NCBI GenBank assembly: GCA_044892505.1
Contig: CM097882.1
Location: 460,040,001 to 460,104,000 of the forward strand
DNA from: Schmidtea nova
Lineage: Eukaryota
DNA length: 64,000 nt
Direction: 5' to 3'
The notes below the pieces were generated by a model. The model saw nothing but the letters and a program-made list of their open reading frames with translations, did not search any database and was not told where the DNA came from. The translations under genes and the position numbers were made by a program. Shown in pieces: positions 25,721 through 64,000 of this stretch. Positions within the stretch are counted from its first letter, which is position 1. Each line of letters begins with the position of its first letter.

Positions 25721-26239
25721 AAGTATAAATAGGCAATTTTTGTTTTGATTTAACAAAAAATAGTTACATATAGTCAAATTCGCACCATACGCACTCTCCT
25801 CAAATGCTATACATCAAAGGAATGGGTTAACACTTGTATTTTGTATATGATACACTGGTCAGACAAAGGGTTTAGCTAGAGTAATAAGAAGCCTCTTCAA
25901 AGACATGATTAACCAAACCTAATGACTAATTTTCACCACGTGTTGAGTATCACTGTGCTAAATAATAGTTGAAAGTAGTAAATTAGTGATATTCTTCGAC
26001 AACCACGTGATGAGCCCAATAAGTAGTGAGACTCTTATAGAAGTAAGTAAATGAAAAAAATCAAACTGTAAATATATATTCAGTCGTGTATATAGATAAA
26101 TATACTGGTATTTTTTAATCAGTTATTTCTTAATTAAGAAATTTTAGCATTTATTTTAAAATGGTCATAGAAAGCGTGCAATATAGTCATGTCATTCATT
26201 TTCTCGTTATGAAAAGCAATATATTTTCAAAACGGATGC

Positions 26240-26782
26240 GTGAATCGGCCCGGGATCTGGCCACTCAAAGACGCGACTCCTGGGATCCTCAATCAAGTAG
26301 CTAGGCAAGCGAAGGTGTGGTGCAATCAATTTAAAACAAAAGCCCCATTTGGAATATGGGCAAATGACACGGAACAATTGATTTATGAAGGAGGACCACA
26401 GTGGCCCTCCAAGCCAATGAGAACCCGAGAACCACGATGGTTCGTTGTCAAGCTAGACAAAGAAAATATCCCTAGGTAGATCATATTTTTTGGAGTGATT
26501 AAGGTGTCAGAATTCAACCGTCTAGGCTAAGTTATGTTAGAAAAGTCTAGGGACATCAAAATCGGAACAGAAATAGAATATTTCAATCTTCCCTTCAGTT
26601 TTCTAGCAGGGAAAAGGACTCGCTCTAAATGGGCCAATTTAATTCATGTACAGGAAGTGTTCCTGTATAAGTCGCACTTATGCTGGACGCCAAACTCGGA
26701 AATGTGTCACTCAACTGGTGTATTGAAGGACGAAGCCAAACAGACGCAAGATTGTTCCGCGATGGGTTTGGTGATGAGATGA
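26240..26782 (+). pseudogene. ORF1 of unclassified element A (unknown protein)
   Basis: Track ORFs 26240-26479 and 26534-26782 are in one frame. The stops at 26477 and 26528 align with W and Y in copy B. 29/72 ungapped identities over the C-terminal part. Confidence 0.8.
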
Positions 26783-27183
26783 GTTGGGACGATGATGTGA
26801 ATGTGATCTTGGAATTTTAGTCTAAAACATTGTTTAATTTTGTTCGTTTGAATTGGTAAAATATAAAATATAGTATTAATTTTGTCGCTTCACTTGTATG
26901 TGGGATGAATGTCTGAATGATTGTATAATGATTTATGGAGAGTTTGTACAGTTAGAAGATTAAGCAACGGAAGTGTATGTTGAATGATGTGAAATGATCG
27001 AGACTGAATTTCATTGCGAGCCGGAAGTCCTGGTGTAGAAAGTATGGAAATCTGATTGAGCGAATAATGAGTGAACTAAACTAAAACGAGATAGGTGCTA
27101 AATTTTATTTAAGAAAATGCGGCGACAGGGGCATAACTAACCACACCAAAACCTAAATACTTCTAAGCAAACTCTTATTCTAG

Positions 27184-27562
27184 ATAGATAGCCTTAAATT
27201 AACGATCGATAAAAGTGCCGAACAGCAACTCCAGCGGAGAAATCAAATGTTAGAAGGACAAATAAACCGATAAGCGTTGGACATGGACGAGTTAAGATGG
27301 ATCGTTGGGTGTCGAGGAGGGTGATCACAGTCGAAACCCAAACGGAGGGCTCAACATTAAGCCCACCCGTGTCGGTAGATGAAGGAATTCCATCCACTAA
27401 TTCGACGACCTTCAAACCAAAAAAAAACGAAATAGACTTGGAGCCAAGAGGCGAAGGGAGAGACACGCATTCGCAGAACGAATACATATCCAAGTGGATC
27501 TGCCGAGCGGGCTATCCGAGAGCCAACTGATAAATCTGATAGACCCCAGCGTGTTCTTGGAA
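27184..27562 (+). pseudogene. ORF2 of unclassified element A (coiled coil + basic motif)
   Basis: QLQRRNQMLEGQINR*ALDMDELR, an internal deletion, RWVSRRVITVETQTE, a frameshift in the A-run near 27420, then KKRNRLGAKRRRER...VDLPSGLSESQLINLIDPSVFLE. Confidence 0.8.
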
Positions 27563-29574
27563 TGCATAAATGTATTTCATACTCTTGAGTTTGTTATTTG
27601 ATGGATGATGAGAGTGCCTGTAATGTATGATGAAAGATAAATTTAATCAAATATTTAAAATGAGGCGACACAAGGAAAAAATCACTAAGACCTTATATCG
27701 GTCAGAATGAACCCATAGGGGCAATAGGAGAGTAGTTATTGCGAGATAGCTCACCTGCCCAACGTGACTAGCAATTAGGGGCAAATCACGGCTACTAGCG
27801 TGGGGTTATAGCTTTTTATGTTGGAGGGGTTACCCTAATCTTTACATCAAGTGAACCCCATGTTGAACATCACCACAACAAGCCAACAAAATATGTCAAG
27901 TCTAAATTTTTTAATTTTGATTTTCAAGTATTATTTTTAACGATTTGAGTGCGGTTTATAAATGAAGTCAAAATAATGTTTTTTACGTAATAAAAAAATA
28001 TATTTTGACATTTTCAAAGTAATAAATGCTCTATGTGAATCATTGAAATCATTGACATTTTCTACCGACAGTTATGCTATAGAAAGTATGTAAATAATTA
28101 GTTATCTATTATTCGTCCATACAAAACTGTCCATAATTTGTTGCCATCTCTTCCAAAATGTATATATTTAGATAAGAAAGTTTTATAAATTTGAATAAAA
28201 TATAGCTAATAATTATTCGGTGGAAACAAATAATATAAAAAATTTCTGACTACCATATCCACAGATTACTCACGATTAAAACTGAATTAAGAAATTTGTA
28301 CAAATGAATTCATAAGTTAATTAGCGTTGAACTATTTTTCATTTTATTTAAATAGCATTTAATATAATTCAACAAAATTAAATTTTATCTCCCATGTGTA
28401 AAATAAATTTTGACTGGTATACTTAAATGTGAAATAAAATTTTGAATCTATTTTTTAATGACATTATTTTGAATTTTATAAAACTTGAAACCATTGAAGT
28501 ATATGAAATTGGTTTTAATGATGGTTCTTTTCTTTAGCTATAATTTTAACGTTCATCAATTAAAGTTATATTTTTTGTTGCCAAATAGCTTCTGATCATT
28601 AAATTCTTAAGAATATTCACAAATCTCTGATACAGCGTTTATCAAGTATCAGTGCTAAACTTTTGTGGTTATAATTAATAATTTATTGCTTGATTTAAGT
28701 CTGGTACTGTGGTTCCCATCTGTTTTACTATTGCGACTTTTCGATAACATTTTCTTATTTAGTGTATGTATCCCAATTAAAGTATATATTGAGTTTTCGA
28801 TGTTTTACTCACATGATGTCCTATATAAATAATAAGACAAATAATGTTTCGAGAAAAAATTATTAATTAGCAAAATTGTATACATACAAATAAATATTTA
28901 CCATGACCAAATAATTAGATTTTTTTATATAGTTTTTCTATATTAAGTGACCCTTGATTTATATCCTTAATTGTAGTTACCTTAGCTAGATTATGTAATC
29001 TTTTTGCTCGAAATTATGCTTGCAAAGTTACTAACTTGAAGCTGTTCTTAAGCGAACATTTTATTGGGTGATTTGACTGAAAAATCAGTCAGTTTATATA
29101 CTAATTTTTAATTACTTAATCTGCCAATAACGTTTGTTATTATTCCACTTGAGTTAATTAAAAATAAAATTCTTTTCATAACAGAATTGTTTATTAACCT
29201 TGCAATTGAAAATATAATTTTATTTTACTGACCTTTGTAGGTCATAAATATAATTTATTTTAATAAAATGTAAAAATTTATTTTATTTTTATTATTATGG
29301 TTCATTTCTTCTAATTAAAATATATAAAATAAAATAATAACCATTTTCCAAATAATTTAAAAATAAAATTAATAAACATACAAATACAAAATCACAGTGT
29401 TTTTCAAATACAGTTTTTAAAAATAAGATGCAATACAAATTCAAATTACTAATAATTGGTTGGGCTTCAGCGTCATCATATATTGTCCATTTCTTTACGT
29501 TTACGTTTACTTTGTACGTGCTTGGTCCCGTATCTAACATATACATTAAAACCTTTTATACATTAAAACTATTT

Positions 29575-35894: not shown

Positions 35895-36878
35895 ATACTT
35901 AAAGTTTTTATTCAATTTGAATAATGATGAATGTCTTAATATAGAATATTAAAACAAATCATTATTAAATATATAACATTCTTCCCCTCTAGGTTAAGTA
36001 TCGTGACGGTACTTTTACTTGTCTTCCAGATCGGGTAGTCGATTCGCTTCCTGCTGGTTCTGTTGACGACAAACTGTCTTCAAATGTAGTCTCGGAATAC
36101 CCTAACGTTTCTTGGGTGTCTTTCCCACTTTCAAGCTCTGTACCGGTCGTATCAGCTGAGCTATTTGAACATGGTGCAAGGTGACTCGTCGATACTGTGT
36201 CTGTCCTTCCATCTCTGTGTTGTACTCTTGCATAGTACGGCGATATTGTCTCGATCAGTTTGACTTCATCGACAAGTGGATCATTTTTATAGCGAATGTG
36301 GCGTTTTAGTAGGATGTTTTGATCAGTATTTCGTAGAAATTCTGGTAAATCACATCCAATTACGGACGCTCGATCAAATTTAAACATTCGATCGTGAGGT
36401 GTCGAATTAGTAGAGACGCACAGCAGTGATCTCATTGATGAAAGGGATTCGTCCAATACTTTTTCCCAATGCTCCTTGCTCATATTGTTTTCCTTTAGGG
36501 CTAAGTTTATCGTTTTCAATAGAATTCCGTTAATTCTTTCGCATTGACCGTTACCTTGAGGATGATAAGGCGTTGCACGTGTTTTCGCCACTCCGTGTTT
36601 AATTAAAAAGTCATTGAATTGTCTGCTTTCGAATTGTGCTCCTCTGTCGCTATGTACGGACGAAGGTGAACCAAACAAGGTAAATAAACTGAACATGTGT
36701 TTTATTACGGTGTCAGAATCGACGTTAGCACAAGGAAAGGCAAAAGGGTACCTGGAATATTCGTCGACAACGACGAGCAAGAAACGATTAGATGTTGTGC
36801 TTTGTAGAGGTCCCACAAAGTCGATTGAAATTCTATCCCAGGGTTTCATTGATGAGATTTACCAGAATTTCTACGAAA
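35895..36878 (-). mobile_element. Gypsy fragment 2: uninterrupted integrase core/C-terminus, PPT and start of 3' LTR
   Basis: ORF 35989-36849: ISIDFVGP, HSDRGAQFES, YHPQGNGQCERIN (DDE) and C-terminal TRSGRQVKVPSRY. PPT AGAGGGGAAGAA is followed by TGTTATATA (LTR start at 35978). Bounded by two gaps. Confidence 0.9.
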
Positions 36879-46162: not shown

Positions 46163-47400
46163 TTCAGATATTAACATACATATTCATGTTCATATACTTA
46201 TTTGTAAATTCATTTGCTATCCATTTAATAGTTCAAAGAAATAAAAGATTAATAAAGCCAGCAAACGATCTGTGAGCAATATTCACTTTATCCGATTTAT
46301 TGACAGTAAAATTGAACATAATTAATATACTTGTCATTTATTCTATCATTTCTACATTTTAAACCAAATTGTAATGATAAAATTATTCTTTGCCATGCTG
46401 TTTTATTGGACAAATTGTAATGGAATTTCGTGCGATTTGCATAACGTGAGATTTTTCACATAACAATTTTAATTAAAATAAACAACAATCTCATACAAAT
46501 CATTATCAATATATTTCTATCCTTCATGGAGAAAATCAATAAGATATTTAGACAAATTGGTTTTAATTTATTGATTTAGAGGTCATGGCGTAGGATTTTG
46601 AGCAATTCATAACGTTTAAATTATAATATTGAATATTTTATTAATCTTGCCAAAAATATTAAATTGAAAATTAAACATTTTATTAATTTTGATGCATTCA
46701 AATTATCATTTTGTCAAATATGAAGTTGCCGATGAATATGCTAAATGCTATTACAATAAAAGCATTAAAAAAAGTATACATTTATTCAGTCAATCTTCCA
46801 CTTGGGCAATAAGTCATTAAACCCTTTTTTGTAAAGGCAATTCTTGCGGGAAATGATGAATTCGTCAATGGTTTTTTCGATTTCACTGTGATTCCTGAAT
46901 TTTATATTAGTTCATATGTTTAAAAAAAGTGAAAATCTGTAGAAGAGATCGGATGAATATGGACTTAGTCTCAAACTTCAACTCTTTCATATTCAAAAGT
47001 GTCATTTTGCCACGTGAAGGCTTGTTATCATCAATATAATGACACCATTCTAGTCACTAAGCTTGGTAATTTCTGCTGCAGTTTAGAACGAATAATTTCA
47101 AGTTGATGAGTGCAACAATGAGCATTGTAATACCCAAAATTTTCATTTTTTTAAATATAGACTAACTCAATTTTTTTTATTTTTAAAGTATATGAAAATT
47201 TTGAAAAATTGGATCTCTATTCTCTACATGAAAAAGATGAAAATATCTGAATTATAAAAGAAAAGATCAAAAGTATATAAGAGATATTTAGGATAAAAAA
47301 GACGATAAAACAGAAATTGCTCATAATCAATAAAAAATTATTTAATTTTTTGAAATTAACTTCGAATTAAACTTATAAAATAAATTTTATTTTCAAGTAG

Positions 47401-48422
47401 CTGGAAAACGTAAAGATGATATGCCAAAAACTCCCGAAGACCTAAAACAGTCGAAAAAACCTCGATTAGTTTTTACAGACATTCAAAGGAGAACGTTACA
47501 CGCGATTTTCAAGGAGACTAAAAGGCCAAGCAAGGAAATGCAGACAACAATCGCCCAACAATTGAATCTCGATGTATCAACTGTTGCTAATTTTTTCATG
47601 AATGCTCGTCGACGATCTGTCGACAAATGGCAAGAAGACATCACAGGCGACGGAACGGATTCAATTCTTGACAATAACAATTCAGAATCAATCTATGATG
47701 TTAGTGGCAGTCCACAAACCGATCATTTATTGAGCAATTATTCTCTTTTAAACAGCAAGCATGAGTTGTTAGATTCGGTTGAGAAATCTATTTTGAATGA
47801 GAATTGTTTTTTAAATTCCCCTGGAAACTTTTATGATCAGAAATCTCATCAAGATCTCAGTACGAATGAATCCATAAAATCAGTAAATAAACGTCAGAAA
47901 ATCAAAGGTACAGACAACACTTTATTATTGTCAGCGGTAAATGAAACAAAGTCTATCGTGGATTCTATAATATCAGATGCATTGTCAGATTCCGTCACCA
48001 ATTCGTCTATGATAAACACTTTGCCTTTTAGCAGTAATAACAGTAGCAATTCAACCAGCCAATCAGATGTTAATCACAATAACAATCATCTTTATCATCA
48101 TTATCAACAGAAATCTCCTAATTCTCATTTATCAGACGACGTCGATGACGACGAAGAAGGGGAGGAAGAAGAGGATGTCAATGCAGAAATCAGAGACGAT
48201 AATGATGGAAATGATTCACTTCAACCTGTTGATGAGATGCTCACAGATCTGACAACAAATTCAGTGACGGAATTTTTCGATTCCACTAATCAACGAACAC
48301 CATCATTTGATGATGATGATGATGATGTCTATGAAGATGTCGACGAAACGGAATTAGATGTATCGACAGCGCATTTTTCTAAATCTTGTAACAACATCAT
48401 CAATAACAACAACAAACTTTAG
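47401..48422 (+). CDS. onecut: onecut last exon: homeodomain plus long Ser/Asn/acidic tail
   Basis: TAG|CT GGA AAA CGT AAA completes the phase-1 codon. KKPRLVFTDIQRRTLHAIFKETKRPSKEMQTTIAQQLNLDVSTVANFFMNARRRS has the Onecut-diagnostic F48/M50. Stop at 48420-48422, with AATAAA near 48932. Confidence 0.96.
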
Positions 48423-56776: not shown

Positions 56777-57689
56777 CTTTAGCTCGATGAGTACTGGCTG
56801 AATCTCAAAATAATAACCCTCTATTCTGGCCTCTTAACAGTGGTGGCAGCACAAAATCAACCCATTTTCTAATGACTGCTTGGGTGCACCAGGCTTTTTC
56901 ACTTTCAATTATATAAATTCCAGAAACTCGTTGAATTTGGTCTTTTTTGCCTTTAGTGATTAAAAATGGCGATACTTTCTTGCCATCTAAACGAATCGCC
57001 AAAATACAGGTAACACGTGCACTATCGTAACCAGTAGAAGGAACATAAATTGACGAAGAAGCCTTGTGGTGGATAGTAGTTTGAGCTCCTTGGCCTAGGA
57101 ATACAGCAGTTTCATCCATAGCAATCATGTTGGAAAGTTGGTATTTCGAAAAATCGATTCCATCAACAAAAAGCTTAAACGAAAGTGCACGATTAACAAC
57201 TTCATTGTCTTCTAGCTTATACAATGTAGTCGATCTCCTTAGAGACAGCTCATATAGATCAAGAAAGTTGTTCAACCAGTGTGATGACGCCTTAAAGTTT
57301 TCTGTGGATATATCGAATTCGACAGCTGTTTTAAGCGCAAATTTTTGAATGTCAGCTCTACGTACAACCAAAGCCATGGCTCTCCTGGCTGCGATCCATT
57401 CCCAGATGCAATCTTCCAACTCAGAAAATAACGGCTGGTGACCAGATCCAACTCTGCGTTTTTTCTCATTTTCTTGGTCCACCAGTTGACACAAGTAATT
57501 GTAGTCTGCACGCCATTTACGAACCATACGAAGATCCAGTATCTTCCCTTTACAGAATGCTACAAGATTTTTACCTTGTGAGTCTTCCACAATTTCTTTT
57601 TTGTACTCGATAGAATAGCCTTTTCGTTTTGTACTCATTTTAATTGGGATTAAAAATTATTTGCTAAAGTAAATAAAATCGATATGAGG

Positions 57690-59506: not shown

Positions 59507-59857
59507 AAATTCAGGTTCGAGCGCGTTCCTTGGTTTATCGAGATCCAGGATGAAAATGGAATGCCCCGGTGGTTAATCCATTTCCGGAAGGTTGATTTAA
59601 AAAAGATAGGCGAATTTGGCTACATCCTATTAGCCCCACCTCGCAACATCGTTACGGGAGAGGAGATCAGTTATCCAAATTTAGCACATAGATTTCTAGG
59701 AGAATGGGGATCGAGATCCTCTTGGGTCACCACTATCAGATGGCATGAGATATTTCTAAATCAGCAACGTTTATGTTGGCAGCCAAACTCGATATTCTAT
59801 CAAGCGGATGGCATACGCCGGGAGGAGAGCCATTATACCCAAGATTGGGTTGATTAG
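59507..59857 (+). CDS. ORF1 of unclassified element B (open frame, 5' end missing, unknown protein)
   Basis: PWFIEIQDENGMPRWLIHF...GEEISYPNL...RSSW...EIFL...LCWQPNS...TQD aligns without gaps to copy A. Confidence 0.7.
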   Translation, partial: KFRFERVPWFIEIQDENGMPRWLIHFRKVDLKKIGEFGYILLAPPRNIVTGEEISYPNLAHRFLGEWGSRSSWVTTIRWHEIFLNQQRLCWQPNSIFYQADGIRREESHYTQDWVD

Positions 59858-60122
59858 TGAAATACGTATGTGAACTAGCTACGTTATCCATGTGATTTCT
59901 GTGGTTGTGGGCTGTGTAATAAAATAAATTATTCTTCGTGAGTTTTGTTTGTCGATGTCTGTCTGGATGAGTACTTGATATTTGAATGTATGAAAGAGTG
60001 CAGACCAAAAGGGTTCATAAAGGGGAAATTCCACTCACAACAGAGCAGCCAAGTAGCAGCAATGATGCAATAATTAATTAAACGTCATAATTGATAACTT
60101 CTTAGTAAAATATAAATTATAA

Positions 60123-60694
60123 ATGGAAAAACTAAATCAATATGTGAACACCGATGACAAGAAGCAGTTACATCGACGCATTCATCTGCTGGAAGGAAAG
60201 ATAAACGTCAATCGTTGGAAATTGATGACTTGAAAACTACTTGGTTCAGTTCAGCAAAAATGAAGGAGATATGCAAAAGTCGTGATAGAGCGGCGCGAGC
60301 ACTAGAAGAGCAGGCTAAAGAGACGGCGGCCGTGAAGCTTGAATTGAATCGTTGTTTACGTGTATTAACAAACGAATTCTTCGAACAACACCTAAAACAA
60401 CAAATACGAGAGAATACCTTTAATCGATGGGTCCTGTCGAGTAATGTGAATACAGAGACACAGATGGAGGACGTTGTATTTCCACCCCGGGCGAAGAATG
60501 TTCAAACTCCACAGACAACAAATGCGGTGCCAATAGAATCTAGATCTAAAAAACGAAATAGACTAGGGTTCAAAAGACGACGCGAAAGGAGAGTTTATAC
60601 AGAACAACTGAGTATAGAGGTAGATCTGCTGAGTGGGTTGACTGAGCGTCAGCTTATAAATGTGATTAATACAAATGTATTCCTTGAAAAATAA
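60123..60694 (+). pseudogene. ORF2 of unclassified element B (~190 aa; one 1-nt deletion near 60205)
   Basis: ATG at 60123 gives MEKLNQYVNTDDKKQLHRRIHLLEGKI, which shifts into track ORF 60215-60694. Coiled-coil-like N-half and basic C-terminal motif conserved with copy A. Confidence 0.78.
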
Positions 60695-60702
60695 ATGTAT
60701 AA

Positions 60703-63321
60703 CACTGGTCTGAGTCATTTCTGAGGTCTGATGTTTCTCAGCTGTTTCCTACTCAATTTTGCAAACTGAATTTGAATATTATAATCGTTTTACTTGATTG
60801 GCTCTAGAAATCAATCTATACACATATTTACATACAAAGGCTAATACATATTATACAAACATGACTTATATTCAATTTACGATAAAAAATGACACGAGCA
60901 TATGACACAAGAGTATCAAGCAAATCCAATTGTAATAGTATTTGATGCTTTACATAATACCATAAATCCTCAAGAGACGAAATAACAATAGTCTTTCATA
61001 AAATGCATAGAAATTTGCAATATTAATTTTGACAAGAGATTATGACTTACATTTTTTTAAAGTTACTTACAACCCTCTTAAAGCAATATGTTTAATCTCA
61101 GATTGAGATAATTAATAATTGTTCGTTATGAATAAATTTTTTATAATCATCTTTGTTTAAAATCGTTATTTGCATATCGTCACTTTCAAATAGCATTGTT
61201 TCAACATAAGTATAACACATCACGGTGATAACAACTTTTGCTTGATTTGATAGTTAAGGTACGTTATTATTTATTTTATTTTTTGCATTTTGCTAGAATT
61301 ATTTTTTTCAATTAATATTTTTAGAATGCACCGAGCGTATAAAAATCACCTTGATCGATTCTGTTATATTTGCGGTCAAGTAATTTTACCAGGTCGTAAG
61401 TCAAATATCACAGATTTTGTGAAACAAAGTTATTACGCTTATTTTGGATTAAAGCTTGGAGATCAGGAGAAATCATTTGCCCCTCATGTTTGTGGTAAAA
61501 CATGTGTAGAAGGTCTTCGTCGCTGGAGGAACAAAAAACAGAATTCCTTACCTTTTGAAGTCCCTATGGTATGGAGAGAAGGCAAAGACCACTGTACTGA
61601 CTGTTATTTTTGTATGACAAATTTATAAGATAAAATACCATGAGCATGTTTAGTGAGATATAAATTGTAAATGAATCTGTTCGATTTTAGGTGTGACCAA
61701 GAAAAAGAAACCTCGTGTGATTTATGCCGACGTACCTTCTGCAATTAAACCTCTCCCTCATGGTCCGAAAATTCCTATTCTGAAGCCACCTGATTTTACC
61801 TTTTCATCATCGTCCTCAAGTACAGATGACTCTGACACCGTCGCATCTACAACATCGTTTATGAATGAAAATCAGCCCATGCCTTTGACTCAAGCTGAGT
61901 TGAATGACTTGACAAGGGATTTGTGTTTGTCTAAAGAGTTTTCTCAGTTGTTAGGTTTTCGCCTACGTGAGAAACATTTATTGGCTCCGGAAACAACTTT
62001 TTATTGGTATCGTGAGCGAGAAAAAGAATTTCGACAGTATTTTACAAAGAATGTCGAAGTCTCGCTGGTATATTGTAACAATATCAATGACCTAATTGCA
62101 GCTTTGGGGGTTGATTATGATCCTGAGCAGTGGAGACTTTTCATAGATTCCTCCTGTTGCAGTCTCAAAGCAGTTCTACTTCACAATGGCAATCGAGTAG
62201 CGTCTGTTCCTGTTGGGCATTCGGTACAGATGTCGGAAAATTACAACAATATGGAGGTTCTTCTTCGTTCATTGAATTATTCGCAACACAATTGGTTGAT
62301 TTGTGGAGACCTTAAGGTAAGTAGCACGCTTCAATTACTTACAGAAATTCTATAACTTTTGTACTCAATTGAATTTCAGGTTGTGGCGTTGGTTTTGGGT
62401 CTACAAGGTGGTTATACCAAATATCCATGTTTTTTATGCATGTGGGACAGTCGGGCAGACGAACAGCACTACATCAAATGCGACTGGCTAGAAAGACAGG
62501 CATTACAACCTGGATCCTACAACGTACTTTCGCAACCTCTGCTAAATCCTCAAAAAATCTTCCTACTACCTCTCCACATCAAGCTTGGCATTATGCGGCT
62601 TTTTATCAAAGCGCTTAGGGAAGATAGTTGAGCAATCACTTTCCTGAAACGCAAATTTCCAACTATCAGGGAATCTAAGCTTAGCAACGGAATATTTGAT
62701 GGCCCGCAGATTAGAGAACTTATGAAGGACAACAATTTCGATTCGTCACTCAATCGCAAAGAGAAGACAGCGTGGCAAGCCTTCAAGACAATAGTTAACA
62801 ATTTCTTAGGTAATCATCGGAGTCCCCAGTATCAACACGAGTTTAAGAATCTTCTTCAGAGCTTCAAACTACTTGGTGCGTGAATGTCATTGAAATTGCA
62901 CTTCCTCAGTTCTCATTTGGACTACTTTCCAGATAACTGTGGCGATTATAGTGAAGAACAAGGGGAACATTTTCACCAAGATATACGAGTGATGGAGGAA
63001 CGATATCAAGGTAGATGGGATATAAATATGGTCGCTGACTATTGCTGGTGTTTGAAAAGAGATACTCCGGTTGTGACACATGCGCGAAAGGCCCTAAAAC
63101 AATCATTTCTGTCTGAATGAATCTCTTTGGTAACATTGTTTTTCCATTTTGTATTTATTCAGTGACCACATATGTTAAAAATAAAATATTAGTCTGTAGA
63201 ACAAAAACTAGAGCCAAACAAGTAAAATGAGTGGCAATTTCGAAATCAGCATACCAAAATTATACTAACAAAGCTTCAAAACCCTTGACCTCAAAAAATA
63301 ATTTTTAAACGCAGACCAGTG
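60703..63321 (+). mobile_element. Full-length CMC-superfamily transposon, most like Chapaev3
   Basis: TIR CACTGGTCTG / CAGACCAGTG and 3-bp TSD TAA (60700-60702, 63322-63324). CAC...GTG termini with a TWA duplication are as described for Chapaev3. The subfamily assignment is from recall. Confidence 0.85.
61326..63120 (+). pseudogene. Chapaev-type transposase with introns, inactivated
   Basis: FCYICG...KLGDQEKSFAPHVC...PMVWREGKDHCTDCYFC zinc-binding N-terminus, RLFIDSS, WLICGDLKV, LPLHIKLG and EEQGEHFHQDI...YQGRW. Introns ~61628-61690 (donor mutated) and 62318-62380. In-frame TGA at 62629 and 62881. Confidence 0.88.
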
Positions 63322-64000
63322 TAATTACTGTAGTTTGATTTTATCTGCATGTGAATGAATGGAATGAATCTGCAGGATAAAAAAGAATAAGTAATGGTAT
63401 TTCTAGAGCACGAGGACCGAAAAAAATCCACATCAGACCTTCTAGTGGTAGTGGTGGACCCGTAGCATCAATAAGGGAATAGTAACCACCTTGGTTGCTC
63501 ACCTGCCTTATTAATCTACACCGCTAAGTATATTACCAATATGAGGCGCAATTATGGGCAAATCATGGGTAATAGCGGGGGTAACGTTTTTATGTTGCCG
63601 GGGGACCCTAATCAGTCCATCCCAGTACACCCGTGTTTTAACATCAACCAACACACCAGCACTAATAATAGTATTCCTGAGTTTCAATAGGTTAAATTTT
63701 ATTTACTTGTTAATTCGATAAAGTGAATTACTACTTTAAATGACTTTTGCACAGATAACGATGTGAACTCTGTAATATTTATTTAGGTTCTTCTACTAGA
63801 TTTCGTTAAAATTCTCCTGGGCATTTTGTTAGACATTTTTATGATATTTTATTCATGTTGATCTACCCTAAGCATTGATATTACTAGCCAACTATCTGGG
63901 GATCCTAAATGCGACGGCCATGCCGGAAAAATCCATCGCTACTGCAAATTTCTGGTCACAATTATCATTTATTTAAATTTATCACTCTCGTTCTCTCGAA

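Follow-up and report, generated by a model that had tools for sequence, protein, structure and literature searches.

Two decayed loci in a 64,000-nucleotide stretch of Schmidtea nova DNA (assembly GCA_044892505.1, contig CM097882.1, forward-strand positions 460,040,001 to 460,104,000; hereafter the window) encode remnants of the same two proteins, in the order open reading frame 1 (ORF1) and ORF2. Set against the published description of Burro, a giant planarian Gypsy retrotransposon, these loci, copy A and copy B, are almost certainly pieces of the long terminal repeats (LTRs) of a Burro-type element. Both ORFs lie inside the LTR and have evolved under purifying selection, and on balance we favor the reading that they are two genes, likely expressed from spliced RNAs, of which ORF2 would act in trans as an RNA regulator resembling Rev or Rex. 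An earlier reading of the window (the sequence-only reading) had called the loci an unclassified mobile family with no visible replication enzyme; the enzymes in fact sit in the internal region that copies A and B have lost. The first of its candidate identities, a giant, ORF-bearing LTR from a Gypsy element like Burro, is borne out, as homologous units flank five full-length parents, and its other options, an endogenous virus segment or a non-autonomous cargo element, are not needed.

The parents derive from five units with a common upstream flank, alike at 94-95% over 5.7 kb, all of which are the 3' LTRs of full elements. These elements span 29,399-29,543 bp, and their LTRs, 3,228-3,309 bp long, enclose an internal region of about 23 kb (22.8-23.0 kb); the two LTRs of each parent are 99.78-99.88% identical (5/5), and a target-site duplication (TSD) is present in all five. 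The linkage to gag-pol, the termini and the duplications by which the sequence-only reading had proposed to check itself were recovered for homologous LTR units. The parents carry a gag-env-pol-ankyrin frame of ~5,100 codons, unbroken in one (5,090 codons) and broken in four, whose Pfam matches run in the order zf-CCHC, Monjiviricetes fusion, protease, reverse transcriptase, RNase H, integrase and ankyrins, the match to the Monjiviricetes-type fusion protein (PF24664; expectation value, E, 7e-71) lying before the protease. Downstream of this polyprotein come a RING/zf-TRAF/MATH ORF and then a coiled-coil ORF, the latter in keeping with Smc-like cargo. For BIR, BCL2-like, SUMO-like and dUTPase-like motifs, some of them reported from HHpred, there was no Pfam match in the parents at an E of 0.01.

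Burro and GYPSM1 are described as giant planarian Gypsy elements of ~30 kb, with multi-kb LTRs and internal regions of up to 25 kb (PMC6431247). As portrayed in that review, they share with our parents a single Gag-Env-Pol polyprotein of ~5,000 amino acids (aa) in which a fusion protein of mononegavirus type separates Gag from the protease, together with CCHC knuckles, ankyrins, and MATH/TRAF and coiled-coil cargo (PMC6431247). The parents differ in being slightly shorter, at 29.4-29.5 kb, than the '>30 kb' given for Burro; in encoding TRAF in an ORF of its own that follows the polyprotein, rather than in frame (S. mediterranea) or upstream (D. tigrina); and in showing no BIR, BCL2 or dUTPase by Pfam, unlike Burro as described there (PMC6431247). 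The text of the review, from which its figure may differ, mentions no LTR-internal genes for Burro (PMC6431247). In six loci of more distant LTR families Gag is 54-59% identical, and in a midpoint-rooted tree of 51 natural ORF2 frames, several forks of which are weak, copy B and the relatives of copy A fall between two gag-linked groups, a young clade and the distant families. A search of the LTRs against Rfam returned nothing at an E of 0.1.

The unit that carries the two ORFs has the anatomy of an LTR. A search of the 1.25-Gb genome gave 3,188 first-look candidates for ORF1 and 9,349 for ORF2, and 150 of the 150 scored candidates matched in each case; with so many matches genome-wide, A and B are not a segmental duplicate, an alternative that the sequence-only reading had named as a refutation of its own view. 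The flanks of 60 loci revealed a sharp 3' end at CCAACA/CCAGCA, and the whole unit of ~3.3 kb has a fixed start at TGTTGG, followed by CCAAT, TATA and an initiator-like TCAGT, and an end at CCARCA. This fixed start and end do not fit a non-LTR retroelement, for which a poly(A) or tandem tail and no fixed 5' end would be expected. Among 20 units, 12 are bounded by an exact 4-bp TSD, five have the common upstream sequence and three were not resolved; among 20 loci of older families, five have an exact TSD, the others being truncated, mismatched or not parsed. These duplications pertain to other units, as copies A and B have no 5' end themselves. Junctions of an LTR end with a primer-binding site (PBS) numbered 674, against none for the control, and represent several families. 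The PBS, putatively of tRNA-Pro type, lies 6 nt from the LTR end, and patterns for PBS and polypurine tract that allowed an offset of only 0-3 nt disclosed no shared flank. The five full elements also share a G-rich tract ahead of their 3' LTR.

Other candidate parents were discarded. The gag-pol beside a distant LTR relative belongs to another Gypsy, 5 kb long and flanked by LTRs of its own of ~300 bp, where the apparent PBS is a TSD, and of four further loci with close ORF matches, three are tandem or segmental duplications and the fourth has no matching LTR pair. Several other elements were observed at the loci surveyed. One Gypsy family (loci L139-L158) is young, 5 kb long and rich in identical Gag copies, and its ~300-bp LTRs are 100% identical within 7 of 10 loci examined; another Gypsy (L095-L097), unmatched to the Burro-type LTR, has a frame resembling env that separates gag from pol; and in a tandem 5.5-kb unit (L084-L093, L100, L143) an LTR remnant occurs together with a RING-like ORF of 505 aa next to Polinton-like genes, TRAF-like RING frames also having been found near such genes. 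Short LTRs of 1.4-1.7 kb without the ORFs form two families (L298, L301 and L302; L292, L293, L295 and L308), and in the first a second LTR end lies ~24.2-24.4 kb away in 2/3 loci, consistent with full-length elements.

Copies A and B, both on the + strand, are collinear, as had been proposed (tblastx combined E 9e-37), with ORF1 matching at 35% over 105 aa and the C-terminus of ORF2 at 66% over 47 aa; by blastn, the terminus matches at 74% over 119 nt (E 2e-11) and the end of ORF2 at 67% over 154 nt. Copy A (26213..27888, +) is the 3' half of a decayed Burro-type LTR of an older subfamily, with relatives at 67-86% identity and a terminus that aligns with the family end; its homology runs from about 26213, which corrects the start of 26230 first given. 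It lacks the U3, TATA box and splice donor, and no PBS follows it, the flank reading AATA. Its ORF1 remnant (26213..26782, +; tblastn with unbroken natural ORF1 queries, E 1e-13 to 2e-32) is without the N-terminus and has in-frame stops at 26477 and 26528. A predicted splice-acceptor-like TTATTCTAG (27175..27183, +), in a layout like that of 35 of 37 unbroken ORF2 copies, precedes an ORF2 remnant (27184..27562, +) that has lost its start codon and contains stops, a ~150-bp deletion at 27301 and a frameshift near 27422, with both the TQTE motif and the arginine-rich tract kept. The conserved LTR terminus (27750..27888, +) comprises a CTCACCTGCC box, TTTTATGTTG, a short stem that shows compensatory changes, and the CCAACA end; its pattern has 2,534 matches (many ends counted twice) against 50 for a reversed control.

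Copy B spans 59507-63661, and most of its long spacer does not belong to the family, because a 2.6-kb transposon interrupts the copy. The C-terminal 116 codons of a 5'-truncated ORF1 (59507..59857, +) are followed by an ORF2 with a frameshift near 60209 (60123..60694, +), whose stop codon is overlapped by AATAAA (60690-60695). The later insertion (60703..63321, +) is a Chapaev3-like DNA transposon, not LTR, with CAC...GTG ends, a duplicated TAA (between A and T) and decayed transposase-like frames; the label follows the hallmarks of Chapaev3 given in PMC4079192. Pfam identified no family in its frames, and a related transposase-like frame also occurs at another locus (L062). The remaining 3' LTR end (63325..63661, +) terminates in CCAGCA and has no PBS after it. 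The 5' half of the unit is absent from both copies and was found nowhere in the window, in which the only internal-region matches are two weak pol-like ones, to other Gypsy remnants. The earlier view that A and B represent different subfamilies, decayed and truncated at the 5' end, is upheld. They are remnants of LTRs homologous to Burro-type LTRs, produced by LTR recombination or deletion and then by decay.

That both ORFs were under purifying selection, as the sequence-only reading supposed, is upheld in 7/7 copy sets, in which the median ratio of non-synonymous to synonymous divergence (dN/dS) is 0.09-0.23. By Nei-Gojobori pairwise comparison of unbroken natural frames, with saturated or near-identical pairs dropped, the medians are 0.19 (36/36 pairs), 0.23 (10/15) and 0.20 (23/28) for ORF1, and 0.12 (32/45 pairs), 0.11 (2/10), 0.09 (10/10) and 0.17 (19/45) for ORF2, values that are approximate as dS is near 1. 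Within the same elements, dS is 1.13 for ORF1 (10 pairs) and 1.28 for ORF2 (6 pairs), against 0.24 for the internal coiled-coil ORF (10 pairs) and 0.20 for TRAF (3 pairs), which places the synonymous divergence of the LTR cassette about five-fold above that of the internal ORFs. Average identity is 92-97% in the LTR ends and leader, and in the middle it spans 36-100% depending on the pair. The ORF cassette is a mosaic: the best-matching partner changes along the LTR in 6/6 LTRs, as expected from recombination.

Signals predicted in the DNA suggest that two accessory mRNAs, both spliced, probably come from the LTR. In 26/29 copies of ORF1 and 35/37 of ORF2 a candidate ATG has a YAG no more than 9 nt away, compared with 182/800 control ATGs, a contrast weakened by the presence of about two candidate ATGs per ORF, which puts the chance level at about 35-45% rather than 23%; with an added pyrimidine-tract filter the counts are 18/29 and 17/37, compared with 22/800. 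The same acceptor-ATG layout occurs in all four internal accessory ORFs, and none was found at Gag. AATAAA overlaps or follows the stop codon in 28/37 copies of ORF2 and 1/29 of ORF1, compared with 106/1,305 control windows, and a poly(A)-type hexamer adjoins a donor-like GT ~80-125 nt past the TATA box in 29 of the 39 promoter contexts, which include at least two apparent non-family matches. Transcription would thus start ~420 nt into the LTR, a donor ~90 nt later would be spliced to an acceptor directly before ORF1 or ORF2, and the RNA would end at the AATAAA on the ORF2 stop; as the predicted promoter, splice sites and poly(A) signal all lie inside the LTR, a solo LTR, if intact, would form a two-gene unit complete in itself. 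At LTR position ~690-710 (e.g. in L200), after the leader hairpins, there is also a conserved purine run followed by TGCACATAG, which is present in the short LTRs as well.

The adjacent donor and poly(A) signal inside the LTR recall foamy virus, in whose R region the major splice donor lies near the poly(A) signal and U1 binding can suppress 5' polyadenylation (PMC3694450). Unlike in foamy virus, where the donor is upstream of the signal (PMC3694450), the hexamer here directly precedes the donor, and a comparable mechanism may be supposed by analogy.

ORF1 encodes a protein of ~190-210 aa with a basic N-terminus (12/18 long ORF1 rows), followed by a helix and beta-rich domain (model predicted local distance difference test, pLDDT, 80; predicted template modeling score 0.72). 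ORF2, of ~185-200 aa, consists of long predicted helices (coiled coil), a disordered linker that opens with TQTE/D (pLDDT <50 at residues 114-138), an arginine-rich helix, with at least eight R/K in 17 aa in 32/32 rows, and a leucine-rich end. The LC8 core [TVI]Q[TV][DE] occurs at one ORF2 column in 31/51 rows and has no match in 7,816 ORF1 residues. A predicted complex of LC8 with ORF2 scored 0.59, against 0.43 for a control, and counts neither for nor against binding. The sequence-only reading recognized neither protein, and we likewise obtained no named homolog or fold match in any sequence or fold search run. Pfam has no family for either ORF; a set of 5.8 billion proteins, searched with a single ORF2 and with both alignments at near lengths only, gave no homolog, nor did an ORF1 profile against representatives (one match, E 8.5e-4 over 23 positions), the ESM Atlas at 0.9, or PDB sequences, and these protein sets may hold few proteins of planarian transposable elements. 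The modeled ORF1 fold had no Foldseek match at an E of 0.001 in PDB or BFVD (best VIA, Z 3.3), and that of ORF2 had no match in BFVD; for ORF1, a predicted model without a fold match in the libraries searched is not a demonstrated new fold. Separately, ~20 intronless LC8/dynein light chain copies, several with identical scores, are clustered on one contig of the genome (C2; L312-L323).

From this anatomy, ORF2 may be pictured as oligomerizing via its coiled coil, possibly clamped by LC8, and as binding the structured leader RNA through its arginine-rich tract; it would then favor the export or read-through of unspliced genomic RNA, and would do so in trans, with ORF-less variants riding along. 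ORF1 would be a basic protein with a defined fold that likely serves as an accessory factor, in the nucleus or against the host. Taken singly, the proposal that ORF2 is an RNA-binding regulator is plausible, at somewhat short of an even chance. ORF2 shares with Rev, Rex, Rec and Rem its small size, a predicted spliced RNA, a coiled coil, an arginine-rich tract, a leucine-rich C-terminus, and a structured RNA within the LTR (PMC5568270; PMC2661877). Unlike these proteins, to which it has no sequence or fold similarity, ORF2 is a predicted protein of putative activity, is encoded wholly inside the LTR and not over env, bears an LC8-type motif, and belongs to elements with ORF-less LTR variants.

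Several observations weigh against the reading of two LTR genes with a Rev/Rex-like ORF2. In addition to the lack of sequence similarity between ORF2 and Rev-like proteins, the transcript structure is read from DNA signals throughout, and the motif counts are not independent because the copies are related. The compensatory changes that speak for the two leader hairpins after the donor, at 8 of 19 pairs in 16 sequences, have no shuffle control. Position -3 of the LC8 motif is mostly T, M, I or S, not K/R, in the ORF2 rows shown, and the export-signal pattern found in 23/32 related ORF2 C-termini, and in 0/32 instances of a control region, is a loose one that we take to be class 1c. Three elements have LTRs of 1.56-1.58 kb without both ORFs and a Gag that is still 97-98% identical, and the existence of such elements means that the ORFs are not needed in cis. 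Further, no element of the A or B subfamily was observed in linkage with gag-pol, and their nearest older relative that bears a PBS has no polyprotein match within 30 kb downstream. The final 1.5 kb shows homology to ORF1 or ORF2 at 18 of 30 PBS loci and none at the other 12. The fullest form of this reading would make Burro-type elements complex retroviruses of invertebrates, their LTR a self-contained two-gene unit, expressible from solo LTRs, with an independently evolved Rev/Rex-like regulator and a protein of undescribed fold, forming a hypervariable module swapped between elements and complementing ORF-less variants in trans; we consider that whole picture doubtful.

The mosaic cassette could alternatively reflect counter-defense, the LTR genes opposing piRNA or innate responses in an arms race that keeps the cassette diverse, with the basic tract of ORF2 serving as a nuclear localization signal. 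Such conflict would fit a cassette identity of 45-65% in many pairs whose LTR ends and leader are still 92-97% alike, the dS of the LTR ORFs (1.1-1.3, as opposed to 0.20-0.24 for the internal ORFs that accompany them), the TRAF-like and ankyrin cargo already in the parent, and the reported repression of Burro1 by PIWI (PMC8532177). However, dN/dS is low throughout and non-coding and synonymous sites vary most, a pattern that fits RNA-level escape or old recombining alleles over protein-level conflict, and we regard counter-defense as rather unlikely. Still less probable is that ORF2 is a trafficking or particle adaptor that ties the ribonucleoprotein of the element to dynein or LC8, like viral phosphoproteins, and that ORF1 works as a transactivator of the Tat/Tas kind. 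The position of the TQT core, in a disordered linker that immediately follows a coiled coil, does fit the context of LC8 ligands (PMC3078936), but LC8 is often just a dimerizing clamp (PMC3078936), so that the motif does not imply transport; and the basic N-terminus in 12 of the 18 long ORF1 rows is compatible with a transactivator, but nothing ties ORF1 to transcription. The solo state of most copies seen, and the A and B subfamilies never having been seen with gag-pol, might be taken to mean that the unit is a non-autonomous element in its own right or a segment of an endogenous virus, or that its ORFs lack function, but this is highly improbable and largely refuted by parent structure, polyprotein and dN/dS, as homologous pairs of 99.8% identity with PBS and TSD flank full retrotransposons and dN/dS is at most 0.23.

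Elsewhere in the window, a homeodomain exon (47379-48422, +; PF00046, E 2e-11), which looks like part of a Onecut/HNF6 gene, has both LTR remnants within about 21 kb. Other decayed elements at 1744-4370, 6952-8359, 35989-36858 and 56805-57656 are a hAT-like element (DUF4371), two Gypsy integrase remnants and a pogo/Tc5-like transposase.

The parent family is already known, and these loci are consequently not a new class of mobile element; what may be new is the LTR-internal genes. A description of two LTR-encoded proteins was not found in print, although Grohme 2018, its supplements, Repbase entries or the review figure may already show it. MMTV sag and HIV nef are LTR-encoded genes whose coding sequence is present in both LTRs, in U3, and is read from the 3' LTR. 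The Burro-type ORFs are likewise duplicated in both LTRs, but, unlike sag and nef, both lie downstream of the TATA box and have their own predicted acceptors and poly(A) signal. If this arrangement is correct, with genes placed past a promoter inside the LTR, a solo LTR could itself be protein-coding, and reverse transcription would have to run through a first segment of ~2.85 kb. ORF1 provides a confidently modeled domain without a fold match in the libraries searched. If ORF2 is Rev-like, the regulated export of unspliced RNA would have arisen independently in an invertebrate Gypsy lineage. The five-fold synonymous excess of the cassette makes the exchange of LTR modules under pressure from PIWI open to test, in animals that have somatic stem cells.

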